A stretch of 64,000 nucleotides of DNA, taken from positions 25,104 through 89,103 of the forward strand of contig JAHEYP010000011.1 of NCBI GenBank assembly GCA_023251535.1, written 5' to 3'. The notes under the pieces were generated by a model. It was not told the origin of the DNA. It ran no database searches and worked only from the letters and a program-made list of their open reading frames with translations. The stretch is from Bacteroidota bacterium. Lineage in GTDB: Bacteria > Bacteroidota > Bacteroidia > AKYH767-A > OLB10. Each line of letters starts with the position of its first letter. Positions within the stretch are counted from its first letter, which is position 1. Below are positions 6,805 through 40,310 of the stretch, piece after piece. Position numbers and translations under genes: made by a program.

Positions 6805-7710
6805 ATGATTTTATACCATTTGAACCACCTGCGAGAGTTAGAAGCAGAAGCCATCTATGTGATTCGCGAAGCGGCTTCACAATTTGAACGCCCTGCGATG
6901 CTCTTTTCAGGAGGAAAAGATTCGATTGTAATGACGCATTTGGCAAGAAAAGCGTTTTATCCGGCTCGTATTCCCTTCCCTTTACTTCATATTGATACGG
7001 GACATAACTTCCCTGAGACAATTACCTTCCGTGATAAAATGGTTGAAGAGATTGGAGCTCGTTTAGAAGTGCGTTATGTACAAGATTCAATCGACAAAGG
7101 AAGAGCTAGAGAAGAGAAAGGTCCGAATGCAAGTCGTAATGTTTTACAAACGATAACTCTATTAGATGCATTAGAAGAGCTTAAGATTGATGCGGCTATG
7201 GGTGGTGCTCGACGCGACGAAGAAAAAGCTAGAGCTAAAGAACGATTCTTCTCGCATCGTGATGAATTCGGACAATGGGATCCGAAAAACCAACGTCCTG
7301 AATTATGGATGTTGTTAAATGGAAGAAAACATATCGGAGAACATTTCAGAGTATTTCCTCTCTCAAACTGGACAGAAATGGATGTTTGGATGTATATCCA
7401 ATTAGAAAATATTCCTATTCCTGAAATCTATTTCACACACGAACGTGATGTGGTAGATCGCGACGGAATGTTATTAGCATATTCGGAATACATCACCTTA
7501 AAAGAAACTGAGAAAGTTGAAAAGAAAATTGTTCGATTCCGCACAATCGGAGATATGACATGTACCGGAGCAGTTGAATCACCGGCATCATCCTTATCAG
7601 AAATCATTGACGAGATTGCAGCTTCGAGAACAACAGAACGCGGCACACGTCAAGATGATAAGCGAAGTGAAACGGCAATGGAAGATCGTAAGAAAGCCGG
7701 ATACTTTTAG
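6805..7710 (+). CDS. cysD: Sulfate adenylyltransferase subunit 2
   Basis: 301 aa PAPS-reductase-like fold, 'SGGKDS' PP-loop, full-length similarity to CysD by eye. Confidence 0.9.
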   Translation: MILYHLNHLRELEAEAIYVIREAASQFERPAMLFSGGKDSIVMTHLARKAFYPARIPFPLLHIDTGHNFPETITFRDKMVEEIGARLEVRYVQDSIDKGRAREEKGPNASRNVLQTITLLDALEELKIDAAMGGARRDEEKARAKERFFSHRDEFGQWDPKNQRPELWMLLNGRKHIGEHFRVFPLSNWTEMDVWMYIQLENIPIPEIYFTHERDVVDRDGMLLAYSEYITLKETEKVEKKIVRFRTIGDMTCTGAVESPASSLSEIIDEIAASRTTERGTRQDDKRSETAMEDRKKAGYF

Positions 7711-7770: not shown

Positions 7771-9045
7771 ATGAGTGATTTCAGCAAAGACGGATACATG
7801 AACATGGAATTGTTGCGTTTTACGACAGCAGGAAGTGTTGATGACGGAAAAAGTACATTAATAGGCCGTTTGCTATACGATTCAAAACAAATTTTCGAAG
7901 ATCAGCTCGAAGCCATTGAACAAAGAAGTCAGCAACGTGGATTTGAGCATGTTGATTTGAGTTTATTGACTGATGGATTAAAGGCAGAACGCGAGCAAGG
8001 AATTACAATCGACGTAGCGTATCGTTATTTCGCAACACCGAAGCGTAAGTTCATCATTGCAGATACTCCTGGGCATATTCAGTATACCCGCAATATGGTT
8101 ACAGGAGCTTCTACAGCTAACGTAGCTTTAATTTTAGTAGATGCACGTAAAGGAGTTTTAGAGCAAACCATTCGTCACTCATTTATTGCTTCGCTATTAC
8201 AAATTCCACACTTAATCATTTGCATTAACAAAATGGATTTGGTGGAATACTCGGAAGAAGCATTTAACAAAGTAGTTGAAGAATTCCGACATGTATCATC
8301 GAAATTAGATATTAAGGATGTCCACTTTTTACCTATCAGTGCATTAAAAGGCGATAATGTAGTAGACAAATCGCAAAACATGCCATGGTATCAAGGAGCA
8401 ACGTTAATGTATCTTCTAGAGAACATTCATATTAGCAGCGATGAAAATCATATTGATTGTCGTTTCCCTGTTCAGTATGTAATTCGCCCTCAACAAACCG
8501 AATATCACGATTACAGAGGATATGCGGGAAGAATTGTAAGCGGAATTTACAAACCGGGAGACAAAGTAAAAATTCTACCAAGCGGAGAATCTGCAGTAAT
8601 AAAAACAGTTGAGTTATTTGGCGAAAATATTGAAGAAGCATACGCGCCAATGTCGGTAACAATGACATTAGATCGCGATGTAGATATTAGTCGCGGAGAT
8701 ATGATAGTACGCGAAAACAATGCTCCGAATATGGAACAAGAATTCGACGTAATGATTTGTTGGATGAATGCTAACAAGCTTCAGTTAGGAGGAAAATACG
8801 CGATTCGCCATACAATAAAAGACGCTCGATGTGTGATTAAAGACATTCGATATAAAATCGACATCAACACATTGCATCGTAATGAAAATGATAAAGAAAT
8901 CGGCATGAATGACATTGCCAGAATAAACATAAAGACAACAGTTCCTTTATATTTCGATTCATATCGCAAAAACAGATATACTGGAAGTGTAATTTTAATT
9001 GACGAAGGCACTAACGAAACCGTTGCTGCCGGAATGATTGTTTAA
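7771..9045 (+). CDS. cysN: Sulfate adenylyltransferase subunit 1 (GTPase)
   Basis: 424 aa. 'LRFTTAGSVDDGKSTLIGRLL', 'DTPGH', 'NKMD' GTPase motifs. CysN/NodQ N-domain only; no fused APS kinase. Confidence 0.9.
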   Translation: MSDFSKDGYMNMELLRFTTAGSVDDGKSTLIGRLLYDSKQIFEDQLEAIEQRSQQRGFEHVDLSLLTDGLKAEREQGITIDVAYRYFATPKRKFIIADTPGHIQYTRNMVTGASTANVALILVDARKGVLEQTIRHSFIASLLQIPHLIICINKMDLVEYSEEAFNKVVEEFRHVSSKLDIKDVHFLPISALKGDNVVDKSQNMPWYQGATLMYLLENIHISSDENHIDCRFPVQYVIRPQQTEYHDYRGYAGRIVSGIYKPGDKVKILPSGESAVIKTVELFGENIEEAYAPMSVTMTLDRDVDISRGDMIVRENNAPNMEQEFDVMICWMNANKLQLGGKYAIRHTIKDARCVIKDIRYKIDINTLHRNENDKEIGMNDIARINIKTTVPLYFDSYRKNRYTGSVILIDEGTNETVAAGMIV

Positions 9046-9070: not shown

Positions 9071-9889
9071 ATGGAAAACTACAACGAACTTCTTGCTGTC
9101 GCAATTAAAACTGCGATTTTGGCAGGAAAAGAAATTACCGGTGTTTATGCCAATGAAATAGCTGTTGAGATAAAAGACGATAAAAGTCCTTTAACTGAAG
9201 CAGACAAAAGATCGCACCTAAAAATAATGGAAGGATTGAAAGAAACGATGCTTCCTGTTTTAAGTGAAGAAGGAAAAATGATTCCTTTTGAAGAGCGAAA
9301 CAAATGGAAATTATTTTGGATGGTAGATCCACTTGATGGCACAAAAGAATTCATCAAGCGAAACGGAGAGTTCACAGTAAACATAGCATTAATTAAAGGA
9401 AATACGCCGGTAGCAGGAGTTATTTATGCTCCAATAATTAACTCTTTATATTTCGGAGCTGAAGGAATGGGGAGTTATAAAATAGAAGCCGATTACGACT
9501 ACTTGATGCATCTTGCGCTATCGCAAAACATCACCGATAAATTTATTTCAGTTGCGCAAAAACTTCCAATTAAAAACGAAGATCGTAAGTACACAGTTGT
9601 TGCCAGCAGAAGTCATATGAGTGAAGAGACGCAAGAATTTATTGAAGAACTCAGAAAAAAGCATGGCGATCTTGATTTAATATCAAAAGGCAGTTCCCTA
9701 AAACTGTGTTTAGTTGCTGAAGGCTCTGCGGACGTTTATCCGCGTTTTGCGCCAACAATGGAATGGGACACAGCCGCGGGACAAGCTATCGCCTTATACG
9801 CAGGATATAGCGTTGTTAATCCAACGGAATCTACTCCTATTGTCTACAATAAAACCGATTTATTAAATCCTTGGTTTGTTGTTGGATAA
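9071..9889 (+). CDS. cysQ: 3'(2'),5'-bisphosphate nucleotidase (PAP phosphatase)
   Basis: 272 aa. 'WMVDPLDGTKEF' inositol-monophosphatase family motif, as in CysQ. Confidence 0.85.
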   Translation: MENYNELLAVAIKTAILAGKEITGVYANEIAVEIKDDKSPLTEADKRSHLKIMEGLKETMLPVLSEEGKMIPFEERNKWKLFWMVDPLDGTKEFIKRNGEFTVNIALIKGNTPVAGVIYAPIINSLYFGAEGMGSYKIEADYDYLMHLALSQNITDKFISVAQKLPIKNEDRKYTVVASRSHMSEETQEFIEELRKKHGDLDLISKGSSLKLCLVAEGSADVYPRFAPTMEWDTAAGQAIALYAGYSVVNPTESTPIVYNKTDLLNPWFVVG

Positions 9890-9912: not shown

Positions 9913-9945
9913 AAAGCCGGCAGTGATGTCGGCTTTTTTATTTTA
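9913..9945 (+). terminator. Rho-independent terminator after cysQ
   Basis: Hairpin aagccggc-agtgat-gtcggctt followed by ttttttatttt. Confidence 0.6.
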
Positions 9946-12106: not shown

Positions 12107-12110
12107 TAAT

Positions 12111-19750: not shown

Positions 19751-19769
19751 AATGCAAATTTTGTTTTTT

Positions 19770-20489: not shown

Positions 20490-20521
20490 AATTCAAATTT
20501 TGATTTCGTAAATACAACGAC

Positions 20522-21844: not shown

Positions 21845-21848
21845 TTTT

Positions 21849-24914: not shown

Positions 24915-24981
24915 TTTCTACTTATATAAGCAAAACGAGGAACTTGTACTTGTTGTACAAATTCCTCGTTATCTTTCTGAA

Positions 24982-26067: not shown

Positions 26068-26255
26068 TTCAATAAAGAGTTTCTGTTTTACAGTTTTAAT
26101 TGCTCGTCAAAATTGAGCATTGATCTTTATTGAAAATCGACTAAACCATTACGTTTGAGTTAAGCGGTATTTATTAAAACATTATCGCAAAACAATTCGT
26201 TAACATTGTATCAACATTGATTGAGGAAATGGAGTTGCTCTTAACTTCAAAAATA

Positions 26256-27341
26256 CTATTTGGTAACTTCCAAAATAATTGAATCGGAAGTCTTAACAGC
26301 ACCTTTATCATCGTAAGCTATCGCATGTACTTCCATTTCACCTTCTTTAACTGCTTTCCAACTCATAGTATAAGGGGCAGAAAATTTCTCTGATATTTTT
26401 ATATCATTAACATAAAAAGAAACTTTCCTTATAGATCCATCTTGATCCAATGCATTTGCAGCAATCGTTATATTATCATCAACCTTAACATTACCTTTAC
26501 TCGGTTTGATGTTTAATGAAATTTCAGGCAGAACATTTTTTAGCTGAGGATAAATCAATGAAGGAATTTGGAATTCCGCGCCGTTTGGATTTCTTGCTAC
26601 ATAATTTTCAGTTCCACCAAGTGGTGTGCCTAATTGCATATTCAACTCAAATGAAAGCTGGCCGTTTGTAGTAAGTTGAGCAATAAGTACAAAATTGGAA
26701 GTATCGGGTCCAAAGGCTCCTCCAAAAGAAGCCCAAGATCCATTTTCAGTAATAAATTCCTCTCCTTGTTTTAGTGAGTTTGTATGTCCAAACATCGATA
26801 AAGAAGTAGAATCCAATCCAAAAACCGTTACTACACGTTGAGGAGTCGCCGCTTTAAGCCCATCTAATCTTTTAATTGGGACTCCGGCGTCAGGATTAGT
26901 ACTTTGCAAAATACTATCAATATTTTTGATCGTATTAAATTCAACATCTCTCGACTTTAACACTGCTGTATGACCATCTGAGCCCGCCCCAACAGATATC
27001 CAGCTATCAAGCATTACTGTATTATTCGATAAAAGTTTTGGTTCAATTTCATTTGCATAAAATCCACCTGCGAATTCGTTATTAAAAAAGTAGGTGGTAG
27101 ATCCTATTTTAAGAGGATGTCCTTCAATCCCATATATTGCTTGTAAACTATATCCTGGTTTCATATCAAGCCAAATACGATAAGTAGTTGAATTCGGAGG
27201 TAAATATCCTCCGGTTTGAACCTTTGAATCGGCAGTATCCGAGATATAATATTTCTCGATGAAAATATTTTCTAGCCCCTGCTGAGCCTCGGCACTCACA
27301 AAAATGCAAGTAAGTGCTATAATCGTAAGTATTGTTTTCAT
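26256..27341 (-). CDS. Paralogue of the secreted N-domain family ending in one Big-like Ig domain (no T9SS CTD)
   Basis: 361 aa. 'GLENIFIEKYYISDTADS', 'TYRIWLDM', 'NTVMLDSWISVGA', 'NGSWASFGGAFGPD', 'VLIAQLTTNGQLSFELNMQLGTPLGGTENYVA'. C-terminus 'ALDQDGSIRKVSFYVND...AYDDKGAVKTSDSIILEV' resembles the Big repeats of the 1134-aa protein. Confidence 0.65.
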   Translation of the reverse strand: MKTILTIIALTCIFVSAEAQQGLENIFIEKYYISDTADSKVQTGGYLPPNSTTYRIWLDMKPGYSLQAIYGIEGHPLKIGSTTYFFNNEFAGGFYANEIEPKLLSNNTVMLDSWISVGAGSDGHTAVLKSRDVEFNTIKNIDSILQSTNPDAGVPIKRLDGLKAATPQRVVTVFGLDSTSLSMFGHTNSLKQGEEFITENGSWASFGGAFGPDTSNFVLIAQLTTNGQLSFELNMQLGTPLGGTENYVARNPNGAEFQIPSLIYPQLKNVLPEISLNIKPSKGNVKVDDNITIAANALDQDGSIRKVSFYVNDIKISEKFSAPYTMSWKAVKEGEMEVHAIAYDDKGAVKTSDSIILEVTK

Positions 27342-27595
27342 GATTTGGATACAAAACTAGATTTGTAATTACGATTCCATTTTACCCCAACTTTAAGTTT
27401 ACATCAATAATCCAACTACTACTTTCCCTCATTTAATGGATAATTCGAGAATACCCTTAGCATCAAAATCACCTCTAAAAACAATGATCTTCCTAACAAT
27501 CGATTGTTTACTTAAAAGCAAATATTTTACAGAAGCAAATTGCTTATTGAATTACTTTGCATTTTCTTAACCTTTCCTTTACAGGTAAGCTAAAA

Positions 27596-28948
27596 ATGAT
27601 CAAAAAACTGCTAAATAAATCGGGAGAAGGCGAAAGCGATGGGTCTTTCTTCTTGAAGAAGAGCTTTTTGGCGCTGATTCTCAGGGCCGGAGGGATGCTC
27701 ACGCAGTATATTTTCATTTTTGTGATTGCTCGCCTCTACGGACCAAAAGAGCAAGGAAGCTTTACTCTTTCCTTCACCATTCTACAATTATTTGCCATCT
27801 TTTCGCAGATGGGGCTCGATAATCGACTCACCAGAGTGATTGCTGCCAATAGCGATTCCGAAGGCAAAAACATCGTCCGTTCAACTTATCTGCAGTCACT
27901 TCGATTCACACTTACAGCTGCCGTAATTTGGGCAATACTCACCTATTTGGCTTCACCGTGGTTGGCGTCAGTCTTCTTTAGTAAACCAGAACTTACCGAT
28001 GATTTACGTATGACCTGCCTAGCATTTGTGCCCTTCGTTATTATCGGCTTAAACAGTGCAGGCTTCCGAGGATATAAAAACATGACGGGCTTTATGATCT
28101 TTAGGGCCCTACAACCATTGATCGCAGCAATTCTTCTGCTCATTTTTTATTACGGAAAAATGGAATTGGGTGCTATACAAGCTTATAGTATTACCACCAT
28201 CATCATTTGTATCTTCAGCTTTACTACTTGGTATAAGTTTAGTAAAATCGGTGAAGCCGAAACTATACCAACTCCAAATGCAGGTTCAGTGATGATGGAA
28301 TCGATGCCATTGATGCTTACCGGTTCTATCTTTTTTATTCTTGGATGGACAGACAACATTATTCTGGGAATTTTCAGAACTTCGGAAGAGGTAGGTATTT
28401 ATGATATGGCTTATAAGCTTTCCACTTTATCGGCTATAGTTTTATTAGCAGTAAATGCCATTCAAGCACCAACCTTTGCTCAACTCTATAATAAGGGTGA
28501 AATGAAGCGACTTCAAGGATTCGTTTTTCGCTCTACTAAATTGCTTTTTTTCACCTCACTACCTGTTACTTTAGTGCTTTGCCTTTTCCCTGAATGGATA
28601 TTGGGAATATTTGGACCAGGATTTAAAGCTGCTGCCCTTACACTTATTATCTTATCTATTGGTAACTTTGTAAACAGCATTACCGGCTCTATCGGCATCT
28701 TGCTGCAAATGTCGGGGAAACAGAAAGAATATAATCGAATAATAATGATTGCTGCAGGGGGCAGTATTCTAATGAACTTTATTTTGATTCCGAGAATTGG
28801 AATTGTTGGTGCGGCTATCTCATCAACAGTTGCTAAAATATTTCAGAATCTGGCATCCGTTGCATACGCAAAAAGATCGATGGGAATACTTTCATTGTAT
28901 TTACCGGGAATTGATAAAATATTTAAAGTAAAAGATAAAAATAACTGA
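27596..28948 (+). CDS. MOP-superfamily polysaccharide biosynthesis protein / Wzx-like flippase
   Basis: About 450 aa with more than 10 TM helices, PST-family look. The ORF track starts at a TTG (27557); the ATG at 27596 (MIKKLL...) with an upstream TAnTTTG-like element at 27553..27559 is more plausible. Confidence 0.65.
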   Translation: MIKKLLNKSGEGESDGSFFLKKSFLALILRAGGMLTQYIFIFVIARLYGPKEQGSFTLSFTILQLFAIFSQMGLDNRLTRVIAANSDSEGKNIVRSTYLQSLRFTLTAAVIWAILTYLASPWLASVFFSKPELTDDLRMTCLAFVPFVIIGLNSAGFRGYKNMTGFMIFRALQPLIAAILLLIFYYGKMELGAIQAYSITTIIICIFSFTTWYKFSKIGEAETIPTPNAGSVMMESMPLMLTGSIFFILGWTDNIILGIFRTSEEVGIYDMAYKLSTLSAIVLLAVNAIQAPTFAQLYNKGEMKRLQGFVFRSTKLLFFTSLPVTLVLCLFPEWILGIFGPGFKAAALTLIILSIGNFVNSITGSIGILLQMSGKQKEYNRIIMIAAGGSILMNFILIPRIGIVGAAISSTVAKIFQNLASVAYAKRSMGILSLYLPGIDKIFKVKDKNN

Positions 28949-28962
28949 GCGGAAGAAAAGCG

Positions 28963-29922
28963 ATGACGAATATTAAGAAAGAACCGAACTTTTTTGTGAT
29001 AGGTGCAGCTAAATGCGGTACCACCACCTTATATGATTTTCTTGAACATCATCCGGAAGTGTATATGTCGCCAATAAAAGAGCCACATCATTTCAGTAAG
29101 GATATAGTTAAAGAAAATTTTAGTGATGAATATAAACACTACCTCAAAACTCGTAATGTAAATTTAGAGGAATATTTAAAAACAGATTTCTCTAGAAAAA
29201 TATGGGAATGGTATATCGACGATTTTAATCAGTACTTGCAACTCTTTAAAAAAGTTAGTAATGAAAAAGCTATCGGAGAAATAAGTAATGGATATTTATT
29301 CTCTTCGGTAGCAGCTAAAGAAATCAAAGCCCAATACCCCGATGCTAAAATCGTAATGATTTTACGAAACCCGATTGAAAGAGCTTATTCGCATTACTTA
29401 GCGAACGTGAGAGACGGTAGAACAACACTTAGTTTCAAAGAAGAGTTGATAGCAGATGCTCAAAAAAGCAATAAAGGCTGGTGTATCTCTCATTGCTATA
29501 CTGAAATGGGATTATATTACGATCAGGTTAAAAGATTTACTGATGAATTCGATAAAGATCATATTAAAATTTACTTGAACGATGATCTTAAGAAAAATGC
29601 TGAACAAGTAGCGAAAGATCTTTTCACATTCTTGGGCGTTAACACTAAAGTGGATATCGATTATCATAAAAAACAAAATGAAGCTCGCTTGCCTAAGTCG
29701 GCAGGGTTCATGAAGTTTATTACGCAAACAGGACTGAAACGTAAAATTTTCAGATCTATGCCAAAGAGCATTCAGGAAAAAGTTAAGCCTCTGTTCTTTA
29801 AAGAAGGTAAGATTCCGAAAATGTCGGATGCTGATCGCAAATGGCTATCTGCTCAATTCAGCGACGATATCCATAAAACACAAAATTTAATTGGAAGAGA
29901 TTTATCCTCTTGGCTTAATTAA
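28963..29922 (+). CDS. PAPS-dependent sulfotransferase (Sulfotransfer_1-like)
   Basis: 5'-PSB loop 'FFVIGAAKCGTTTL' and 3'-PB 'MILRNPIERAYSHY' (R...S). Confidence 0.8.
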   Translation: MTNIKKEPNFFVIGAAKCGTTTLYDFLEHHPEVYMSPIKEPHHFSKDIVKENFSDEYKHYLKTRNVNLEEYLKTDFSRKIWEWYIDDFNQYLQLFKKVSNEKAIGEISNGYLFSSVAAKEIKAQYPDAKIVMILRNPIERAYSHYLANVRDGRTTLSFKEELIADAQKSNKGWCISHCYTEMGLYYDQVKRFTDEFDKDHIKIYLNDDLKKNAEQVAKDLFTFLGVNTKVDIDYHKKQNEARLPKSAGFMKFITQTGLKRKIFRSMPKSIQEKVKPLFFKEGKIPKMSDADRKWLSAQFSDDIHKTQNLIGRDLSSWLN

Positions 29923-29934
29923 TCCGCTTTCAGA

Positions 29935-30852
29935 ATGAATCAGAAATATCATCTTCCAAATCTACTTATCGGTGGCGTTCATAAAGCAGGAACAACCTCT
30001 TTGCATACTTATTTATCGATGCATCCTGATGTTTGCGGTTCGTTGATTAAAGAACTTGCATTTTTATTGCCTGCTCGCTACCATCAAGAAGTTCCCGACG
30101 ACGAAACTTATAATTCTCACTTTAAAAATTACAAAGGAGAGAAATATATCCTCGAGACTACCCCTTCGTATCTATATGGAGGATTACCTTTAATTGAAAC
30201 AATCGAAAATCGGCTAGGCGATAACGTTAGAGTAGTAATGATTCTTCGTGAACCTGCTGATCGTTTCGTTTCTTTTTATCGACATTGCTTAACAAAATTA
30301 GAAATTCCTGCAGATACAACTCTCGAAAAATTCATATCGACTTCTGCTCCTGTTGACGCAGGCGTTAGAACAACCGATGAGTCGGATCATATCAACGAAG
30401 GTTTGGTAGAAGGTAATTACGCTGCATACCTTCCTCTTTGGATGGAACACTTTGGCGATAGATTACTGATCGTATTCTTTGATGAATTATCGAAAGATAC
30501 GCCGGGAACCATGAAGCGTATTTGCAAATGGCTCAACATCGACTTTTCGGTTTATAAACCGGGAGACTTTACAATTGAAAATAGAACAGTAGATTATCGC
30601 CTTGGATTTATTCATCGTTTTGCTTTGTGGGTGAATCATCATACTGAAACTTTTTGGAGAAAAAATATTAAACTCAAGCGAGCATTACGATCGGTATACT
30701 ACGGATTTAATGAAAAGAAAAAAGGACAGAGTGAATTGATAAGTGATAAAGCATTGAAAGATTTAGAAGCAATATACAAGCAACCTAATCTTCGCTTAAA
30801 GGAGTTACTGAAAGATCAACCCAATATTAATCTACCTTATTGGTTGCAATGA
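29935..30852 (+). CDS. PAPS-dependent sulfotransferase
   Basis: 'LLIGGVHKAGTTSL' and 'MILREPADRFVSFY'. Only a 12-nt gap to the previous sulfotransferase. Confidence 0.75.
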   Translation: MNQKYHLPNLLIGGVHKAGTTSLHTYLSMHPDVCGSLIKELAFLLPARYHQEVPDDETYNSHFKNYKGEKYILETTPSYLYGGLPLIETIENRLGDNVRVVMILREPADRFVSFYRHCLTKLEIPADTTLEKFISTSAPVDAGVRTTDESDHINEGLVEGNYAAYLPLWMEHFGDRLLIVFFDELSKDTPGTMKRICKWLNIDFSVYKPGDFTIENRTVDYRLGFIHRFALWVNHHTETFWRKNIKLKRALRSVYYGFNEKKKGQSELISDKALKDLEAIYKQPNLRLKELLKDQPNINLPYWLQ

Positions 30853-31790
30853 TGTACACACCTGATTTCTTTTTAGTGGGTGCTGCTAAAGCCGGGACCA
30901 CAGCATTACAACAAGCGTTGGATGCTCATCCCGATATTTATATGTCGCCTTTAAAAGAGCCTAATTTCTTTTGCAGTGATATCGATCCCGATAAATTACG
31001 TCCCGACTTAAAAGAAAGACTTAAAGCTGATAATACCGAAGAATGGATTAATTCAGGAATGCAAGGTTCTCGCTGGCGAGCATTTTTGAGAGATGAAAAT
31101 CTTTACAGTGCTTTATTCGCTCCGGCACAACCAACACAAGTTACTGGAGAAGCTAGTGTGAGTTATTTGTATTCAACTACTGCCGCTGAAAATATTGCAG
31201 CAGCAAAACCGAATGCTAAAATTATCATTGTTCTCCGTAATCCGCTAGAACGTGCGTGGAGTCATTATTTAATGGAAGAACGATTAGGAATGGCAGATAG
31301 ATCGTTCGAACTTGCTTTTAAATCGGTTAGTAATCTCCAACATCCCATGTGGGGAAGAGATTTACTCTTTTTACATGGAGGTCTATATAATGATCAAATT
31401 AAACGATACCTGAAATATTTTGACCCATCTCAATTGCATATTATCATCTACGATGATTACCGCAAACAACCTCAAGATGTTTTAAAAAAACTATATGTGT
31501 TTTTAGGAGTTGATCCGACAAAAGCCGACTTATCTGTTGCTCTGAAACGCAGTAATGAAGCCCGAACGGGAGTCTTCGACAAAGCTATTCCGTCAGGTTC
31601 ATTGAAAGTAAAACTTCGTCGATTCTTTAAAAGCATAGGCATTCATTCTTCTCTGAAGAATATGCTTACTAAGCCTTCCGATAGAAAAGTGGGAGAGCAG
31701 GAAAAAAAGATTTTATCGGGATTCTATCTTCATGAAATCGAAGAACTCGAAAAAACACTTAATTTAGACCTTTCTCTTTGGAAGAAATAA
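30849..31790 (+). CDS. PAPS-dependent sulfotransferase
   Basis: 'FFLVGAAKAGTTAL' and 'IIVLRNPLERAWSHY'. The ATG at 30849 overlaps the previous stop (ATGA). The ORF-track start at 30840 is a TTG. Confidence 0.8.
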   Translation: MMYTPDFFLVGAAKAGTTALQQALDAHPDIYMSPLKEPNFFCSDIDPDKLRPDLKERLKADNTEEWINSGMQGSRWRAFLRDENLYSALFAPAQPTQVTGEASVSYLYSTTAAENIAAAKPNAKIIIVLRNPLERAWSHYLMEERLGMADRSFELAFKSVSNLQHPMWGRDLLFLHGGLYNDQIKRYLKYFDPSQLHIIIYDDYRKQPQDVLKKLYVFLGVDPTKADLSVALKRSNEARTGVFDKAIPSGSLKVKLRRFFKSIGIHSSLKNMLTKPSDRKVGEQEKKILSGFYLHEIEELEKTLNLDLSLWKK

Positions 31791-31793
31791 GAA

Positions 31794-33062
31794 ATGATTA
31801 ACCAAAGCATAAACCCTGTATTTAAAGGACTGATGTATCAGTTGCTTTGGTTTTTATTTTTCGCTAATGCCTTCGCTTGCTTTGTGCGTATTCCCGCCAG
31901 AGCAGTTGTTGATGTTAGCTCAGGAATATTCCTTGGTATTTTGGTTATACATTATGGTTACGAATGGTTAAGAGCATTAAAAACAAAAAAAGTTAAAATG
32001 ATTTCGTTGTTGATGCTGCCATTAATTTTAATGCCAGTAATCAGCGCTATTCAAGCAGCTCGCGTCTTTGGACAACCTGCTATTTACGGATTTCTTGCAC
32101 AACGTCAAGTGTTCATGGCACTGTGTGCACATTTCATTGTTACTGCTTTAGAACGAAAGTGGCTCTCAGAAGAAAGCTTTGAAAAGTACTTTGTGCGTTC
32201 ATTGCAAATTTTGCTTTTCATTTTTCTTATCTTTTATATGTTCGTGAATCCTTCAAGATTCATCGATACTGACTTCGTAACTTTAAGTCCTAATAAAGGG
32301 TTCAGGTATGAATTCCCAGACTCATGTATTTACGGATTGTTTTTATATTCCCTTTTTAAAGTATGGATTCTAAAAGAAAAAAAATGGTGGCTCACTGTTT
32401 TATTTAGCCTTTTCTACATTTTAGTTTATCTACTCGATCGTACACAGCTCGTAGCACTCGCCGGAACAGTTGGATTATATGTACTACTAAACTTCAGTGT
32501 ATCTCGAATGATTCGCATGGTGATTTTAGGAGCATTCGGAATTATATTGGTTTTTGGATTACTCGCCTTTATAGCTCCCGATTTCCTCGATAAAAACTTA
32601 AAACTTTACGCTACAGCTTTTGAAACACTCACAGGAGAAAAAGTAGCCGAGTCATCTACTAATATTCGTTTCCTCGAATCGAAAATTGCATTAGCAGGAT
32701 TTACTGATCACCAAGCTATCGGTGTAGGATTTTTAAGTACTCGATGGAATGATGGATTTAGAATGATTAATAAATACTTCTATCCTACCGACGTTGGCTT
32801 ATTGGGCAACTTATATGTTTATGGCATCATTGGAACATTGGTGTTTTATATTCCTTTTCTATTGGCGATGAAATATCACTTTCGCTTACGCAAGGAACAT
32901 GCTACACTATTGGTGGCATCGCAATATGTACTAATATTTTTGTTTGCCGATATGCTTACTGCTGCGACAAATCAAAAATTCTATGGAGTAATAGCAGTGT
33001 TTTTCGGAATAGTTTACTATTACAGATACAGAGAAAATAAAGAAGAGGAGTTAGCGATATAA
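31794..33062 (+). CDS. Multi-TM Wzy/O-antigen-ligase-like polymerase
   Basis: 422 aa, about 10 to 12 hydrophobic helices with one larger loop. It sits between sulfotransferases in the glycan cluster. The family assignment rests on topology and context only. Confidence 0.45.
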   Translation: MINQSINPVFKGLMYQLLWFLFFANAFACFVRIPARAVVDVSSGIFLGILVIHYGYEWLRALKTKKVKMISLLMLPLILMPVISAIQAARVFGQPAIYGFLAQRQVFMALCAHFIVTALERKWLSEESFEKYFVRSLQILLFIFLIFYMFVNPSRFIDTDFVTLSPNKGFRYEFPDSCIYGLFLYSLFKVWILKEKKWWLTVLFSLFYILVYLLDRTQLVALAGTVGLYVLLNFSVSRMIRMVILGAFGIILVFGLLAFIAPDFLDKNLKLYATAFETLTGEKVAESSTNIRFLESKIALAGFTDHQAIGVGFLSTRWNDGFRMINKYFYPTDVGLLGNLYVYGIIGTLVFYIPFLLAMKYHFRLRKEHATLLVASQYVLIFLFADMLTAATNQKFYGVIAVFFGIVYYYRYRENKEEELAI

Positions 33063-34078
33063 TGAGTGATACAGGTATGATATTTATTGTTGGGAACAGT
33101 CGTTCGGGAACTACTATGCTCGGACGAATGCTCGGAAAAAATACTTCTGTTTTTTCTTTTCCTGAGTTACACCTTTTCGGTCCATGCATCCCTCATGGAA
33201 AAGAATTAGAAATTATTGACAAAGCTACTGCAATAAAAATATTTTGTTGGTTGCTCGATGTCTCTACAAAAGGATTTCATCACGAAAGAAATCCGGATCA
33301 ATTTTCAGAGCAAGCAACACAACTAGCAAACGAGTTTTATAAACCAGGTGTCGATGCATGGGATGCTTACAGACATTTTGTAATTCATGTAACGAAAACA
33401 AACGGCAAATTAATTCCTTGTGAAGATCTACCGGGAAATATTTTTAAGCTAAGTCAACTATTTCAAAAATTTAACGACGTAAAAGTTGTTCATATCGTTC
33501 GTGATCCTCGTGATGTGGTATTATCGCAAAAGAATCGTCACTTGCGCAGAAAAATGGGCGGACATTACGTTTCAAAAAAAGAAGCGTTGCGTGTTTGGTC
33601 AAACTATCACCCGTTCGTAATTTCTCGTTTATGGAAAAATGCTGTCTCTTCTGCAATTAATATCGAGAACAAAAATATTCTTACTGTTCACTTCGAAGAT
33701 TTATTAGCAAAACCGGAAGAAGTTCTTCGTCAAATTTGCGTTCATACAGGAATAATATTTGAACTTAATATGCTAAATGTCCCTCAAGTTGGTTCTTCTA
33801 CGCAAAAGGATGATCCTTCTAAGATGGGAGTAGACGCTGGAAGATCTGGTGCTTGGCAACGTGGCGGATTAAGCGATGCGGAAATTGCTATATGTGAAAA
33901 CGTAAACGGCGATATAATGCAAAGGTTGAATTATCCTTTGAGTGGAAAAAAATTGAGTTTGACCTCAAAAGTAGGCTATGCTGTTTTACTACCTTTCAAA
34001 GGCACATTAGCCTTGGCATTAAACTGGAATCGGACAAAAGGACTTCTAAACTTCTTAATTCACCGAATCTTCAAATAA
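33062..34078 (+). CDS. PAPS-dependent sulfotransferase (Sulfotransfer_3-like)
   Basis: 'IFIVGNSRSGTTMLGRMLG' P-loop-like 5'-PSB and 'HIVRDPRDVVLSQ' 3'-PB. Start overlaps the upstream stop. Confidence 0.65.
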   Translation: MSDTGMIFIVGNSRSGTTMLGRMLGKNTSVFSFPELHLFGPCIPHGKELEIIDKATAIKIFCWLLDVSTKGFHHERNPDQFSEQATQLANEFYKPGVDAWDAYRHFVIHVTKTNGKLIPCEDLPGNIFKLSQLFQKFNDVKVVHIVRDPRDVVLSQKNRHLRRKMGGHYVSKKEALRVWSNYHPFVISRLWKNAVSSAINIENKNILTVHFEDLLAKPEEVLRQICVHTGIIFELNMLNVPQVGSSTQKDDPSKMGVDAGRSGAWQRGGLSDAEIAICENVNGDIMQRLNYPLSGKKLSLTSKVGYAVLLPFKGTLALALNWNRTKGLLNFLIHRIFK

Positions 34079-34134
34079 TCCTCATCCATTATGGGTGTTT
34101 TATACTTATTTTTGAGTCTCGAAAAATCATCATC

Positions 34135-35319
34135 ATGAAAACAGGAAAGCTTTCTCTAACTACTCTATTCTTTTTCTCTGCAATATTATTGTTGCCAGCT
34201 GCATGTTTGAAATATGCTAAGGGCAGCAAACAAGATCCGAAGCCGAGTACTAATAATACAAATACTTCAGAGGCATCATTACCCGATCCTGCTAAAAAAT
34301 CGTTGCCTAAAAATTGGCCATGGAGAGGCGTATGTATGCCTTCAGCTCACGCCGATTATAGAGATGTTGCGTATCTCCACTCTATCGGTGTGAATTTTAT
34401 TCGAATTCAGATTAAATCACCAAAGCGTACTGAAAGAGAGAGAATAAATCCTACCAAAGCTTTCTACGATGAACTCGAATGGGTTGATAAAGTATTAGAT
34501 GAATGTAAAAAGTACAACATGACAAGTATTGTTGCTTTTAACTATCTCGTACTTGATCCTGCAAGTGGTGTTGATGATAAATCAGCCGACTTCTGGACAA
34601 AAAAATCGTATATCGACAGTACTTACAAAATGGTAGATATCATCGCAAGAAGATACAAAGACAGAGGTGATGAATTAAGTGCTTACGAAGTAATCGGAGA
34701 GCCTGCAGTTGATCAAGGAGATGGTGATAAAGCGTCGGTGCCACCAGGATTAGAAAACTTCTTTAAATCGACATTGGCAGTAATTAGAAAATATGATCAG
34801 CAACGCTATTTCTTAGTGACACCAGGACCTTGGGGACGACCTACGAATTATGCAAAATTCAATGGATTCAATATAAACGATCCAAAAATTATCTATGGAG
34901 CGCATATGTATTTACCAAATCAATTTACGCACCAAGGAATTAAAAAACGACCGAGACCTGTTGCTTATCCTGGCGTAATTGCAGGAAAAAATTGGGATAA
35001 AGATGCTCTTGAAAAAAGCATGTCGTATTTGAAAAACTTCGAGAATAAAACTGGAGCGTTAGTCTATATCGGCGAATTCCAAGCTGTTCGTTGGGCACCT
35101 AACGGAAATCAATGGGTGAAAGATTGTGCTGACATCATGAGTAAAAACGGTTGGAGCTGGACATACTTTGCTTATCAGCCTGATTACGATTTTTGGAATC
35201 CGTATATGGAAGTTAAGAATCCTACTGATGCACCGGCTAATTGGAATTTAAAAAACTCAGGTACGGATGCCGAAATTTGGCAATACATGATCAAAAATTA
35301 TTTCTCTAAAAACAAATAA
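34135..35319 (+). CDS. Secreted GH5-like glycoside hydrolase
   Basis: Signal peptide / lipobox-like 'LLPAACLKYAKG'; 'GAHMYLPNQF' (H-x-Y), 'YIGEFQAVRW' (nucleophile Glu motif). The acid/base motif reads 'IGEP' rather than NEP, so it is atypical. Confidence 0.5.
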   Translation: MKTGKLSLTTLFFFSAILLLPAACLKYAKGSKQDPKPSTNNTNTSEASLPDPAKKSLPKNWPWRGVCMPSAHADYRDVAYLHSIGVNFIRIQIKSPKRTERERINPTKAFYDELEWVDKVLDECKKYNMTSIVAFNYLVLDPASGVDDKSADFWTKKSYIDSTYKMVDIIARRYKDRGDELSAYEVIGEPAVDQGDGDKASVPPGLENFFKSTLAVIRKYDQQRYFLVTPGPWGRPTNYAKFNGFNINDPKIIYGAHMYLPNQFTHQGIKKRPRPVAYPGVIAGKNWDKDALEKSMSYLKNFENKTGALVYIGEFQAVRWAPNGNQWVKDCADIMSKNGWSWTYFAYQPDYDFWNPYMEVKNPTDAPANWNLKNSGTDAEIWQYMIKNYFSKNK

Positions 35320-35335
35320 GCGTAGTAATACTTAA

Positions 35336-36514
35336 ATGAAAATTGCAATTATTGACCCAGTAGGAAGTAAAGCAGGAATTGATCATTATGATCTTTCCTT
35401 GTTGAGCGGATTAAAAAATGCGGGTGATAATTGCTTTCTATATTCCAACTTTAATTACGAAGAAGGAATCATTCACTATAAGAAGTACTTTCATAATGTC
35501 GGTGTATCGAAGATAAGTTCTATCATCAGTAATTTCATTGGATTTTTCAAAAGTTTGTCTGATGCAAAAATGCAAAAAGTAGACTGGTTAATATTGCATG
35601 TGTTTCGTGCAGGAGCTTTCGACCTATTCACATTTACTTTAGCTAAACTTATGGGATTTAAACTTCTTGCCATTGTGCATGACATTGAAAGTTTAGATAC
35701 CATTACTTTGCCAATTGTTAGAAGAACAGTGATAAGCTCTCTTCCCGATTTACGCGTAGTACATAATCAGTTTTGTAAAGACGAAATCGCTAAACAAATT
35801 AGCGATAAAGCACTTAATACTACCGGAATTATTCCTCATGTGAATTTTATCAAATTGTTCAATCGTTACCATTCTAATACTAATTTAAAGAATGATTTAT
35901 TAAATGATAAAAATGCAATCCGTTCACTTGATTCGAAATTATTGAATGCTGTAAACGCCAATGAAAAAATAATTTTGTTCTTCGGACAAATTAAAAAATC
36001 AAAAGGGGTTGATGTTTTATTAGAGGCAATTCCATATTGCAAAACAAATTTCAAAGTTGTTGTTGCAGGAAAGCTACGAGGAGAGAACTGGGAAAAGTAT
36101 CAATCGATAATAGATTCAAAAAAACTAAACGAAAAAGTCATTCCGATAATTCGACATATCAACGATTATGAACGTGACATATTGTTTGCGCTTGCTCAAG
36201 GAATTATTTTGCCATATCGGTATATTTATCAGAGCGGGGTTTTATTAATGACTATGAGCTTCCCAATGGCTGTTATAGCTAGCAACCTTCCTCCTAATGC
36301 TGATATTATTATTGATAGCGAAAACGGATTTCTTTTTGAAGCAGAAAACAGCAATGATCTTGCGATTAAAATTGATGCGTTGATTAACAATAGCGAATTA
36401 GATCAAATAAAAATCCGGGCTATTTCCGACATAAATGCCAAAAATAGTCCGGATGTTATAGGAATGCAATATCACCAATTATTGGCGAATCCGATAGAAT
36501 TACTCTACCATTAA
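35336..36514 (+). CDS. GT4-family (group 1) glycosyltransferase
   Basis: 392 aa GT-B. C-terminal 'ENGFLFEAEN' E-x7-E-like motif. Confidence 0.6.
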   Translation: MKIAIIDPVGSKAGIDHYDLSLLSGLKNAGDNCFLYSNFNYEEGIIHYKKYFHNVGVSKISSIISNFIGFFKSLSDAKMQKVDWLILHVFRAGAFDLFTFTLAKLMGFKLLAIVHDIESLDTITLPIVRRTVISSLPDLRVVHNQFCKDEIAKQISDKALNTTGIIPHVNFIKLFNRYHSNTNLKNDLLNDKNAIRSLDSKLLNAVNANEKIILFFGQIKKSKGVDVLLEAIPYCKTNFKVVVAGKLRGENWEKYQSIIDSKKLNEKVIPIIRHINDYERDILFALAQGIILPYRYIYQSGVLLMTMSFPMAVIASNLPPNADIIIDSENGFLFEAENSNDLAIKIDALINNSELDQIKIRAISDINAKNSPDVIGMQYHQLLANPIELLYH

Positions 36515-38324: not shown

Positions 38325-40310
38325 ATGAAAGTAAAAAGTAATAAAAACACCGCTAACTCTAATGCCAAAAACACGGGCAGCAAATTTAAAGTTCTTATTA
38401 TTTTATTTTCGATTCTTTTATACGGGCAAACACTTTCGTTCGATTTTACTTTAGATGATGAGTCTTTTTATACTCAAAATACTTTGGTTCAAGATGGATT
38501 AAAAAACACGCTTCAAATTTTTACAACTCCAAGTTTAGGAAGCAACAATTTATTTACAAGTAATCAACCATATCGTCCAATAACAATTTTAAGTTTTGCC
38601 TTTGAACATCAACTATGGGGGAATAATGCGGCACTTTCCCACTTCATAAATTTATTGCTTTATGGCATTTTACTTTTAGTGCTCTTCAATGTTTTGTCGT
38701 TGCTATTCGCCGAATATAGTTATGTGCTGATTACTTTGATTACACTATTATATGCTGCTCACCCAATTCATGTTGAAGTTGTTTCAAATATTAAAAGTAG
38801 AGATGAAATTTTAGCAGCATTATTCGGATTACTTTCTTGGCAATTCTATTTATCAGCAACAAAAGAAGCAATAGCAAATAAAAAACTTTTAGCCCTATCC
38901 ACCTTAATGTTTTTCTTTGCCTTGCTAAGCAAAGAAAGTGCTGTTGTCTTTTTGGGCATATTACCACTTTCATCGCTTCTCTTAAAGAAGGAAAAACTTT
39001 CGAAAACTGTTACTTCAGTAGGCTTTCTAATAATTCCGTTAATAGTATTCTTATTAATTCGCCAATCTATTCTCATTAACAATAGCGGACAAGTACCCTT
39101 GTTAATTTTGGATAATGTGCTAAATTCCGCTCAATCGAATAGTGAAAATATCGCGACACGTATCTTGATTCTATATTACAATTTAAAAATGTTGATACTG
39201 CCTTACCCTTTATCATGGGATTATTCATATCAGCAAGTTTATGTTACAGGATTCTCTAATATTTATGTGATTGCAGCATTAATAATTTACCTTACTCTTA
39301 TTACATCTTTCTTTTATTTTATGAAGAGAGATAGTATTATTTCGTTTTGTATCTTATTTTATCTTGGCTGCATATTACCAACTTCAAATTTAGTTTTCAT
39401 TAGCAGCGCTAACTTTGCTGAGCGATTCCTTTTCGTTCCTTCTCTCTCCATCGCGATATTGATTTGCTACTTAATTGTTAAGTATACCAAATCTGATACA
39501 CGAAACTTCAATTTCAGATGGAGCAACATGAGCAGTAAGGTTTATTTAACAGTCCTAATTGTATTTTCTGCAATAACAATAAATGGTGCAGGATATTGGA
39601 AAAACAATTTGAAATTATTTGAACGAGGAGTTATTACTTCACCTAATAGTAGCAAAACACACTATAACTTAGGACAAGAGTATTGGAAGATGGCTAAAGA
39701 AAATAACAGTTATTCTTCAGAAAACATCTATGCAATTAAGGCAATAGAAGAATTCAAAAAGAGTATTTCAATTTTGCCAGAAAACTATATGTCAGTAACA
39801 AATCTTGCTTGCGTTTTTGAGCTATCGAACCAACTGGATTCTTCTCTTCACTATTTCGATGTATCGAAAAAAATGTATCCTGACCAGAAATTAATTGAAC
39901 CAAATATATCAGCGGTCTACTTCAAAAAAGCTACTCAGTTCGAAGTTTCAAAAATGATTGATAGTGCTGAAGCGAACTACAAAATTGCTCTTCAATATAA
40001 TCCTTCGAATAGTCTTGCTTCGAATAATTTAGCTTTGATTAGTTACAACAAAAACAATATTGTTGAAGCCATAAATATCTTAAAACAAGCAATTAAAAAA
40101 GACTCAACCGATATCACTTTAGTTGAATCTCTTTCAGCCATTTTCTTCCTCACTCAGGATTACAAGTCAGCAATTGAATATGGCATTATCGGATTAAATA
40201 TCAATCCTCAGTCAAGAAAAATTATTGGTGTTTTGGCAGATGCTAATCATGCTTTAGGCAACAATGATGAGGTGGCTAAATATCAAAACATGATGAATGC
40301 TATCCGATAA
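38325..40310 (+). CDS. TMTC-like membrane protein: N-terminal PMT_2/GT39-like multi-TM domain and C-terminal TPR repeats
   Basis: 661 aa. About 10 TM helices in the first 420 aa, then TPR-like 'YNLGQEYWKM', 'ALQYNPSNSLASNNLALI', 'AIEYGIIGLNINPQS'. Confidence 0.55.
   Translation: MKVKSNKNTANSNAKNTGSKFKVLIILFSILLYGQTLSFDFTLDDESFYTQNTLVQDGLKNTLQIFTTPSLGSNNLFTSNQPYRPITILSFAFEHQLWGNNAALSHFINLLLYGILLLVLFNVLSLLFAEYSYVLITLITLLYAAHPIHVEVVSNIKSRDEILAALFGLLSWQFYLSATKEAIANKKLLALSTLMFFFALLSKESAVVFLGILPLSSLLLKKEKLSKTVTSVGFLIIPLIVFLLIRQSILINNSGQVPLLILDNVLNSAQSNSENIATRILILYYNLKMLILPYPLSWDYSYQQVYVTGFSNIYVIAALIIYLTLITSFFYFMKRDSIISFCILFYLGCILPTSNLVFISSANFAERFLFVPSLSIAILICYLIVKYTKSDTRNFNFRWSNMSSKVYLTVLIVFSAITINGAGYWKNNLKLFERGVITSPNSSKTHYNLGQEYWKMAKENNSYSSENIYAIKAIEEFKKSISILPENYMSVTNLACVFELSNQLDSSLHYFDVSKKMYPDQKLIEPNISAVYFKKATQFEVSKMIDSAEANYKIALQYNPSNSLASNNLALISYNKNNIVEAINILKQAIKKDSTDITLVESLSAIFFLTQDYKSAIEYGIIGLNINPQSRKIIGVLADANHALGNNDEVAKYQNMMNAIR

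Follow-up and report, generated by a model that had tools for sequence, protein, structure and literature searches.

A four-sulfotransferase gene cluster in uncultured Bacteroidia and its probable role in assembly of a sulfated surface glycan

Introduction

Sulfated polysaccharides such as heparin and carrageenan are valued biomaterials, but in bacteria they are poorly understood and regarded as a rarity linked to marine habitats. Sulfotransferase (ST) genes and genes for 3'-phosphoadenosine-5'-phosphosulfate (PAPS) inside polysaccharide clusters have precedents in the synechan (xss) cluster of Synechocystis sp. PCC 6803 (PMC8205485), in Cobetia marina KMM 1449 (PMC11766843) and in Vibrio sp. 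KMM 8419 (PMC11641403). In activated and granular sludge, dye assays detect 'sulfated GAG-like' (glycosaminoglycan-like) polymers whose pathways and producers were unknown to the authors, and BLAST searches with reference STs mostly fail in this material (PMC10483923). In the present study we analyzed a 64,000-nt stretch of DNA from a Bacteroidota bacterium (Bacteroidia; AKYH767-A; OLB10; GenBank assembly GCA_023251535.1, contig JAHEYP010000011.1, positions 25,104 to 89,103 of the forward strand), which is referred to below as the window. An earlier note, made from the letters of this stretch alone, had described a cluster at 27557-36514 encoding a Wzx-like flippase, four PAPS-type STs, a Wzy-like protein, a GH5 glycoside hydrolase and a GT4 glycosyltransferase (GT), and had proposed that it builds a sulfated surface glycan.

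The locus shares several properties with described systems. Synechan synthesis is likewise Wzx/Wzy-dependent and employs PAPS-type STs of different subfamilies together with a flippase, a polymerase and GTs (PMC8205485). The C. marina KMM 1449 capsule (PMC11766843) and the capsular polysaccharide of Vibrio sp. KMM 8419 (PMC11641403) resemble it in combining a PAPS-supply region with ST and GT genes. A putative sulfated-GAG cluster of Pontiella sulfatireligans also has an ST among GT2 and GT4 genes (PMC7356697). The note's own list of known bacterial sulfation cases was incomplete, in that synechan (PMC8205485), Vibrio sp. KMM 8419 (PMC11641403) and C. marina (PMC11766843) were missing from it. 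We report here that the eight-gene arrangement is far beyond chance, with an identical gene order recurring in dozens of species. We put at roughly 60% the probability that it is one half of a two-part system, responsible for assembly and modification, and that the product of this system is a multiply sulfated, undecaprenyl diphosphate (Und-PP)-linked surface glycan made by the Wzx/Wzy route.

Results

The eight-gene cluster and its sulfotransferases

Open reading frame (ORF) analysis and a Pfam scan placed the eight genes on the + strand between 27596 and 36514, in the order described earlier:

27596..28948, + strand: Wzx-type flippase (MOP superfamily) for lipid-linked oligosaccharide; Polysacc_synt 88.8, Polysacc_synt_3 67.3, MatE 47.8 bits
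28963..29922, + strand: ST1, predicted cytoplasmic PAPS-type sulfotransferase, cluster A (ancestral type); Sulfotransfer_3 62.4, Sulfotransfer_1 46.5 bits
29935..30852, + strand: ST2, sulfotransferase, cluster C (close tier of relatives only); 55.1 (Sulfotransfer_1) and 47.7 bits
30849..31790, + strand: ST3, sulfotransferase, cluster A; Sulfotransfer_1 70.1, Sulfotransfer_3 70.5 bits
31794..33062, + strand: Wzy-like polytopic membrane protein, WaaL/Wzy_C fold; Wzy_C 26.0 bits (below threshold), fold match
33062..34078, + strand: ST4, sulfotransferase, cluster B, the most divergent and CurM/OLS-like; Sulfotransfer_3 88.8, other profile 46.6 bits
34135..35319, + strand: GH5-family glycoside hydrolase with a signal peptide and a lipobox-like Cys24; Pfam Cellulase 53.8 bits
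35336..36514, + strand: GT4-family (GT-B fold) glycosyltransferase, conserved core in all tiers; Glycos_transf_1 71.2, Glyco_trans_1_4 62.3 bits

The Pfam thresholds are 28.2 bits for Polysacc_synt, 23.5 for Cellulase, 26.4 for Glycos_transf_1 and 31.7 for Wzy_C. The scan of the window covered 48 of its ~53 ORFs of at least 100 aa; those outside it were mostly short and nested in larger genes, together with 62705-63595 and 63602-63991. The family assignments that had been made from sequence alone were all upheld by profile, structure-database or fold searches. Spacing between the eight genes ranged from -4 to +16 nt apart from one 56-nt gap. The 12-nt gap between ST1 and ST2 and the ATGA overlap of the ST2 stop with the ST3 start (ATG 30849), both pointed out earlier, were seen in the sequence, and the ST4 start overlaps the stop codon of the Wzy-like gene by 1 nt. 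A scan for terminator-like sites found no excess within the operon, and a scan for sigma-70 promoters and terminators returned nothing above shuffled expectation, with a tool that does not cover Bacteroidota promoters.

As a check on the four STs the note had proposed a profile search, and had held that placement in non-PAPS families or a lack of catalytic residues would count against them. When the search was run, all four exceeded the gathering thresholds of Sulfotransfer_1 and/or Sulfotransfer_3 (22 and 27 bits, respectively), with scores of 46-89 bits, and none was placed in a non-PAPS family by Pfam. Each protein contains both a 5'-phosphosulfate-binding (5'-PSB) loop (K/R-x-G-T-T/S) and a 3'-phosphate-binding (3'-PB) motif (R-x-P ... 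S). The pairs named in the note were found verbatim: GAAKCGTTTL and RNPIERAYSHY in ST1, GGVHKAGTTSL and REPADRFVSFY in ST2, GAAKAGTTAL and RNPLERAWSHY in ST3, and GNSRSGTTML and RDPRDVVLSQ in ST4. In an alignment of 136 STs from 61 loci, which gave no sign that catalytic residues are lacking, positions G14, K/R17, G19, T20, T21, E40, R135 and P137 were essentially invariant. The glutamate at E40 (ST1 numbering) occurs in all four STs and in 134 of the 136 relatives; among the four, the E-x-H pattern is retained in ST1 and ST4 only. E40 may be the counterpart of the catalytic Glu of 3-O-sulfotransferases (3-OST) and N-deacetylase/N-sulfotransferases (NDST), an assignment made by spacing and manual alignment rather than by superposition.

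ST1 and ST3 are paralogues with 37% identity; ST1 shares 27% identity with ST2 and 20% with ST4. In searches of PDB, ST1 matched a bacterial sulfotransferase (3rnl, 3.4e-52), the ST domain of NDST1 (4.8e-12) and 3-OST-3 (1.5e-5), while ST2 matched the same three at 1.6e-9, 1.8e-8 and 2e-7, respectively. The carbohydrate STs NDST and 3-OST were matched by ST1, ST2 and ST3. Weak matches of ST4 were to the STs of CurM (2.2e-9) and OLS (3.3e-6). The STs of the 61 loci fall into sequence clusters A, B, C and D, which give the window the pattern A-C-A-B, cluster B being present in 20 loci. Neither transmembrane (TM) segments nor signal peptides were predicted in the four STs or in GT4, which suggests that ST1-ST4 are cytoplasmic, where PAPS is available. 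Four STs need not equal four sulfates on each repeat; the enzymes probably differ in the position or the sugar that they modify.

The PAPS-supply module

The earlier note also placed sulfate-activation genes upstream on the same strand. These are cysCDNQ (6169-9889), and the end of cysQ lies 17.7 kb before wzx. They form part of the following module:

4326..6101, + strand: DASS/SLC13-type anion symporter with two TrkA_C domains, heading the PAPS-supply operon; CitMHS 217, Na_sulph_symp 50.6 bits
6169..6798, + strand: CysC, adenylyl-sulfate (APS) kinase, which makes PAPS; APS_kinase 229.6 bits, NF003013 291 against a cutoff of 163
6805..7710, + strand: CysD, sulfate adenylyltransferase small subunit; NCBIfam CysD 458.7 against 195, Pfam PAPS_reduct
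7771..9045, + strand: CysN, sulfate adenylyltransferase GTPase subunit; CysN equivalog 593.4 against 590, TIGR02034 568 against 336
9071..9889, + strand: CysQ, 3'(2'),5'-bisphosphate nucleotidase, which removes inhibitory 3'-phosphoadenosine-5'-phosphate (PAP); TIGR01331 278.9 against 228.8
9913..9944, + strand: hairpin (7-bp stem, AAAGCCG/CGGCTTT) with a T-run behind it, identified in the sequence itself

CysC, CysD, CysN and CysQ all exceed curated NCBIfam cutoffs. The symporter scored 109 bits with the NCBIfam DASS model, which is under the cutoff; its position ahead of cysC and the analogy to the Cobetia PAPS region (PMC11766843) make sulfate its probable substrate. The hairpin and T-run 3' of cysQ are a probable terminator of the PAPS operon. 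No CysH, CysI or CysJ was found in the Pfam scan of the window ORFs. The interval between cysQ and wzx is occupied by a unit of three genes (metallophosphoesterase, GT and GH1) and by ~14 kb of minus-strand genes, both of which are described below.

Conservation and synteny among relatives

A scan of species-representative genomes yielded 64 species-level loci, every one in a metagenome-assembled genome (MAG), from lakes, rivers, glacier streams, activated sludge, oil-sands water and other non-marine waters. The window proteins were mapped onto all 64, and the loci were divided into three tiers by identity of the Wzy-like protein. Loci of the close tier (60-99%) have the same eight genes, order and flanks. 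Those of the mid tier (~38-42%) carry wzx, three to five STs, wzy, sometimes an ST4-type gene, GH5 and GT4, and the eight-gene order is preserved from 99% down to ~38% identity. In the far tier (31-37%; 33 single-ST loci) a single operon reads cysC-cysD-cysN-cysQ-wzx-wzy-ST-GT4 and is continued 3' of GT4 by a DUF1972-type GT4 (GT4b), a GNAT-like protein, an XrtA-type polysaccharide deacetylase and a secreted 553-aa protein (unk553). A WecA-like priming transferase and/or WecB was detected at the end of this operon in about a dozen loci, the WecA-like protein in L033 and some ten others. XrtA-type deacetylases are usually paired with FemAB-like acyltransferases. An NDST-like logic of deacetylase plus N-sulfotransferase was considered for the far-tier deacetylase and was not adopted, the enzyme being of the XrtA-system type and its neighbor GNAT-like.

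Linkage of the PAPS genes to the assembly genes is widespread. Of the 47 informative loci, 30 have cysQ on the wzx strand and 5' of wzx, and in 27 of these the two genes are no more than 135 nt apart. In two mid-tier loci (L018 and L024) cysC-cysD-cysN-cysQ lies directly upstream of the multi-ST version, and in a third (L017) the window's entire block from cysN to GH1 adjoins wzx. Locus L018 is an intermediate that has cysCDNQ, three STs, GH5, an epimerase, a second GT, a WbaP-type Bac_transf protein and a WecA-like protein in one string. Searches with ST1 revealed two more Bacteroidia lineages with four- or five-ST loci, a Wzx and the same Wzy-like family. Their Wzy-like proteins are 24-30% identical and have the ESSxxxR and PxDxGxLG motifs in common; one of these lineages has a Bac_transf protein, which in L070 is a primer in the same gene string as the STs. 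This conserved linkage to primers and to cysCDNQ implies that the STs belong to an undecaprenyl-phosphate (Und-P)-linked glycan pathway with its own PAPS supply. The window lineage represents a derived form, in which the STs increased from one (cluster A) to four (A-C-A-B), GH5 was gained and the PAPS module became separated; at least 11 species whose STs show the ACAB pattern retain the split arrangement.

A few further observations were made on these loci. Among the more distant four-ST loci, the Wzy-like gene of L070 is followed by a gene (12252-13658) whose 468-aa product is soluble, contains NEY and TEW motifs and matches no Pfam family, at the position taken by GH5 in mid-tier loci without ST4. 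A possible fifth ST of 243 aa is encoded at 9184-9915 of L071; it has a PQTASS loop, an RNPMD motif and a weak match to Sulfotransfer_1 (E=0.0024). The record titles of L015, L016, L019, L021 and L024 include 'Chitinophaga pinensis', 'Bifidobacterium breve' and 'uncultured Bifidobacterium sp.'; judged by the genes that they contain and by GlmS proteins 80-92% identical to that of the window, these MAGs are evidently mislabelled.

The Wzy-like protein

The Wzy-like protein is presumed to be the repeat-unit polymerase. Its AlphaFold2 (AF2) model (pLDDT 71.5, pTM 0.77) gave one significant match when compared with PDB by Foldseek, to WaaL (7tpg_B; E=4.7e-7, TM-score 0.55-0.57), and a profile search against PDB returned a marginal WaaL match only (E=0.24). 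PF04932 is precomputed for most of its homologues. Of the earlier description as Wzy/ligase-like, the fold was borne out, and the Wzy_C score fell below the Pfam threshold. The predicted structure places the protein in the WaaL/Wzy_C superfamily, a fold that does not separate polymerases, ligases and O-oligosaccharyltransferases (O-OTases). Within the conserved core that includes wzx, the classic location of wzy, no other protein is a candidate polymerase or ligase; the far-tier 553-aa protein is secreted and not polytopic. WaaL is usually encoded away from a wzx-containing core, and Wzy polymerases are typically hypervariable. The family comprises 53 relatives in a database of 5.8 billion proteins, and those with a source name come from uncultured Bacteroidota.

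The alternative that survives best is that the protein is a ligase or O-OTase, such that a single short, heavily sulfated oligosaccharide is attached to lipid A-core or to surface proteins, including those secreted by the type IX secretion system (T9SS), and no polymer is made. We consider this unlikely, but it is a serious candidate. The only structural relative of the protein is a ligase, and in a profile alignment the invariant R216 and R292 align to two WaaL arginines. The position of the His of the WaaL 'HND' motif, on the other hand, appears in the family as an invariant Asp (D333), an equivalence that we presume from a manual alignment. Pfam detected in the window protein neither PglL_A nor Wzy_C_2, domains that characterize OTases of the PglL type, although a ligase domain alone does not distinguish WaaL, Wzy and O-OTases (PMC12645811). 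Conservation of the family over 24% to 99% identity is unusually wide for a Wzy, and no Wzz/Wzc chain-length regulator was seen near any locus examined; a GH5 endo-hydrolase in the operon, by contrast, fits a polymer substrate better. Genes for T9SS cargo flank the locus in the close and mid tiers but are not adjacent where cysCDNQ adjoins wzx. Accordingly, the earlier proposal of a sulfated extracellular polysaccharide (EPS) or O-antigen-like polymer holds as regards a lipid-linked sulfated glycan pathway, on the synteny with PAPS genes and primers, and the product may be a polymer or, less probably, a single ligated unit.

Wzx, GT4 and GH5

About nine or more TM or hydrophobic segments were predicted in Wzx. 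Its scores with the NCBIfam equivalogs Wzx_EPS and HfsF were far under the cutoffs, and it was assigned to no named Wzx subfamily. GT4 has orthologues in 58 loci. When GT4 was aligned to 8dvw_A and 5i45_A, the Glu positions of the EX7E motif were occupied by Tyr296/298 and Met305, and no conserved Glu was present in this region among the 58 orthologues.

The nearest PDB relative of the GH5 protein is 8b3y (2.1e-38). The catalytic acid/base E189 is present in 30 of 30 orthologues and the nucleophile E314 in 28, the other two being gapped at this position. The Asn of the canonical NEP motif, which 8b3y has, is replaced by Gly in 19 and by Ser in 11 of the 30. In GH5 enzymes this residue is normally in contact with the substituent at C2 of the -1 sugar, and one may speculate that its loss could accommodate a modified C2. 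As to the substrate, the nearest PDB entries (8B3Y, 8AG9, 8ANX) are labelled 'Endoglucanase' only, and a literature search gave no informative paper. With its signal peptide and lipobox-like cysteine, GH5 is presumed to be a periplasmic or surface enzyme that trims or releases the glycan.

The region upstream of wzx

The earlier span of the cluster was correct in gene content and order and was amended at its 5' end, where wzx probably starts at ATG 27596 and not at TTG 27557. From ATG 27596 the protein has 450 aa, compared with 440-452 aa in orthologues, and a conserved non-coding block reaches this ATG:

27488..27595, + strand: conserved sequence 5' of the assembly operon, or its leader, from an alignment of the window with L006, L004 and L007

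These ~110 nt are nearly invariant in the window, L006, L004 and L007, while the remaining intergenic sequence diverges. The block, a putative promoter region, contains a candidate operator, the perfect palindrome CAATCGATTG (27497-27506), together with a TTACTTTG box at 27552-27559, within which TTG 27557 falls. A 21-nt inverted repeat (27292-27312 and 27709-27729, 86% complementary) brackets the divergent promoter region. An invertible promoter of the kind that governs phase-variable capsules in Bacteroides was considered and rejected, since the arms of the repeat lie in coding sequence and the repeat is weak in L007 and absent in L004 and L001; it is probably due to chance. No NusG-like gene indicative of UpxY/UpxZ-type regulation was found near the locus by Pfam.

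Neighboring genes

Eight genes on the - strand (13510-27341) lie between the PAPS module and wzx. They encode, among others, a SusC-like TonB receptor (21849-24914), a Fib_succ_major protein, a 558-aa protein without a Pfam match and several T9SS cargo proteins. The products of 14421-17825, 20522-21844, 24982-26067 and 26256-27341 have in common an unannotated N-terminal domain of ~270 aa (36-56% identity). This T9SS-cargo domain family has 1,418 homologues, and its AF2 model has a pLDDT of 63.5, with residues 88-194 below 50. In the close and mid tiers this block is conserved on the left side of the locus; it is absent where cysQ adjoins wzx. On the + strand, 10128-13460 encodes a weakly LpxH-like metallophosphoesterase, a GT of the MJ1255/VC2487 family (185.7 against a cutoff of 195.9) and a GH1 beta-glucosidase. 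These three genes stand between cysQ and wzx in L017, follow the terminator-like hairpin in the window and are absent from L018 and L024; they may have a part in the sulfated-glycan system.

Downstream of GT4, a Kelch-repeat T9SS protein is encoded on the - strand (36500-37822), overlapping the GT4 stop by 15 nt, and is followed by:

38325..40310, + strand: polytopic PMT_2/TMTC-like (GT-C type) protein with C-terminal TPR repeats; TPR families, weak TMTC_DUF1736, ~9 TM segments

The latter is 50% identical to a PMT_2-TPR protein located directly 3' of GT4 on the same strand in L001. It is a possible accessory of the locus and, being absent in L004 and L006, is not part of the core. The Kelch and PMT_2/TPR genes stand between GT4 and glmS; both are missing in L006, whose Wzy-like protein is 99% identical, and in L004, and both are present in L007. 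Between the window and L006, identity is 89% for GT4, 92% for ST4 and 94-99% for the other genes. The missing genes and the lower identity of GT4 and ST4 suggest a hot spot of recombination or indels at the 3' end of the operon. In L001 (14584-19577), L016, L009 and L022, genes for a PMT_2-TPR protein (GT-C type), a GT2 and a TPR protein lie 3' of GT4 on the same strand. Pairing of PMT_2-TPR with GT2 is typical of periplasmic glycosylation from polyprenyl-phosphate sugars, and these genes may add a further glycan modification in the four loci.

Elsewhere in the window, 55787-57629 (+ strand) encodes an MbnP-family protein followed by a di-haem cytochrome c peroxidase; such MbnP/MbnH-like pairs are associated with copper handling, and this one is unrelated to the sulfated-glycan locus. 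No Pfam family was matched at E<=0.001 by the products of 46786-48615 (+, 609 aa), 17857-19533 (-, 558 aa), 57633-58184 (-, 183 aa) and 59759-60340 (-, 193 aa).

Discussion

A proposed pathway for a sulfated, lipid-linked glycan

Based on the gene content and synteny described above, we propose the following course of events. The transporter-CysC-CysD-CysN-CysQ operon would import sulfate, convert it to PAPS and clear the inhibitory PAP. A priming transferase encoded elsewhere in the genome would start a short repeat unit on Und-P at the cytoplasmic face of the inner membrane; in relatives' versions of the operon the primers are of the WecA or WbaP type. GT4 would extend the primed unit, and the four soluble STs, representing three sequence clusters, would add sulfate from PAPS. 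The sulfated unit would then be flipped to the periplasmic side by Wzx and polymerized by the protein with the WaaL/Wzy fold, and the GH5 lipoprotein may trim or release chains. In this scheme we infer the acceptor, the order of steps, the polymerization and the final location of the glycan, which might be O-antigen-like, a capsule or an EPS.

Several observations weigh against such a pathway. The note had reported no Wza/Wzc or primer in the window, and the Pfam scan and tblastn with the relatives' WecA agreed; no priming transferase, Wzz/Wzc or Wza was found in the window or the flanks examined, and the Wzz/Wzc and Wza families were likewise missing among the genes examined in L033, L018, L070 and L071. 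A single GT in the operon is an unusually low number alongside four STs. The Wzy-like protein scored 26.0 bits against the 31.7 bits of Wzy_C, and its fold cannot tell a polymerase from a ligase. With a GT4 that lacks EX7E and a GH5 that lacks the NEP Asn, the chemistry may be atypical. In addition, the PAPS operon could also serve sulfur assimilation. All carriers are uncultured, and their sulfated polymer is predicted from the genes.

The paucity of GTs is also compatible with STs that act on something other than a glycan, namely a lipid, a steroid-like molecule, a small metabolite or the head group of a glycolipid, in which case the link to Wzx, the Wzy-like protein and GT4 would reflect export of a sulfated lipid. 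In Bacteroides, cysDNC and cysQ are linked to a steroid sulfotransferase, and the nearest solved relatives of ST4 are the polyketide-pathway STs CurM and OLS. ST1, ST2 and ST3, however, match the heparan-sulfate NDST and 3-OST domains, and Pfam identified no lipid- or polyketide-synthesis genes in the operon. Moreover, the synteny of Wzx, the Wzy-like protein, GT4, WecA/WbaP, WecB, deacetylase and GH5 over 60 or more species is what would be expected of an Und-PP-glycan pathway, and we regard a non-glycan acceptor as improbable. A decaying or silent remnant, or a degradative locus resembling a polysaccharide utilization locus and marked by GH5 and the TonB receptor, with no sulfated product in either case, is very improbable: the window lacks the primer, second GT, deacetylase and WecB of the ancestral-type operon, the PAPS module is ~17.7 kb away from the assembly genes and the GT4 and GH5 motifs are non-canonical, but none of the eight tightly coupled ORFs is disrupted, purifying selection on the catalytic and PAPS-binding residues is clear in the 61 loci, 11 or more ACAB species keep the split itself, STs are biosynthetic whereas degradative loci carry sulfatases, of which the Pfam scans of the window found none, and the TonB block is on the opposite strand and absent in relatives where cysQ adjoins wzx.

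Significance

Taken as a whole, these results make it most likely that a group of uncultured Bacteroidia from freshwater and wastewater produces a sugar polymer at the cell surface that is heavily sulfated. A searchable signature for it consists of cysCDNQ, wzx, the specific Wzy-like family, one or more STs and the EX7E-less GT4, and it is present in at least 64 species-level MAGs. The series from one ST to four or five on an apparently conserved backbone constitutes a natural enzyme set for engineering position-specific glycan sulfation, and one that comes with built-in PAPS supply and PAP removal. If the high ratio of STs to GTs translates into dense sulfation, these enzymes would be attractive candidates for a microbial heparin-like material. 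A more far-reaching and rather doubtful proposal is that the product is a glycosaminoglycan-like short repeat containing N-acetylhexosamine (HexNAc), with three or four sulfates and a charge density similar to that of heparin, and serves as a conserved 'common antigen' of the clade. ST1-ST4 would then be the first bacterial position-specific STs of the heparan-sulfate type, and the clade would be one source of the 'sulfated GAG-like' material of sludge (PMC10483923).

Comparison with known systems

Clusters of this kind are already known from synechan and from the Cobetia and Vibrio capsules; in a literature search we found no description of one in Bacteroidota. The xss cluster has two STs per eight GTs, a polysaccharide co-polymerase (PCP; XssK) and the regulators XssQRS, and it is carried on a megaplasmid (PMC8205485). 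In contrast, the window locus has four STs per one GT, showed no PCP or regulator, and is chromosomal and clade-wide in Bacteroidia. Its family further differs from synechan in the non-marine habitat and in a PAPS module inside the ancestral operon. In gene content, window positions 4326-9889 together with the STs correspond to the Cobetia locus, in which a PAPS region of cysN/C, cysD, cysQ and a sulfate permease gene is embedded with ST and GT genes (PMC11766843). Cobetia, however, is a marine gammaproteobacterium that uses the ABC-transporter capsule route (kpsMTED, kpsSC) rather than Wzx/Wzy, and the structure of its product has been solved, with about one sulfate per disaccharide repeat (PMC11766843), whereas the product of the window locus is predicted from its genes. 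Pontiella belongs to the Kiritimatiellota, is marine and has one ST in the cluster, with no cysCDNQ linkage reported; it is cultured, and GAG-like exopolymers were detected in it by dye assays (PMC7356697).

The far-tier operon resembles that of enterobacterial common antigen (ECA) in its WecA-type primer, WecB epimerase, Wzx, Wzy and GTs and in its clade-wide vertical conservation. The ECA pathway comprises WecA, WecB, WzxE and WzyE. ECA is unsulfated and has no PAPS module, there is no orthology beyond family assignments, and the window lineage has lost WecA and WecB from the neighborhood. ST1-ST3 match the ST domain of animal NDST and 3-OST in PDB at E = 5e-12 to 2e-7 and share with them the 5'-PSB and 3'-PB motifs and a conserved Glu ~23 residues after the P-loop Lys. 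The animal enzymes are Golgi type-II membrane proteins that act on a finished chain, whereas ST1-ST3, at low identity to them, are predicted to be soluble and cytoplasmic and would act on lipid-linked units before export. What is new in the present locus is its occurrence in a clade of uncultured, non-marine Bacteroidia, the inclusion of the PAPS module in a vertically conserved, 'common-antigen-like' operon, the stepwise expansion of STs from one to four or five, and the distinctive Wzy-like, GT4 and GH5 variants.

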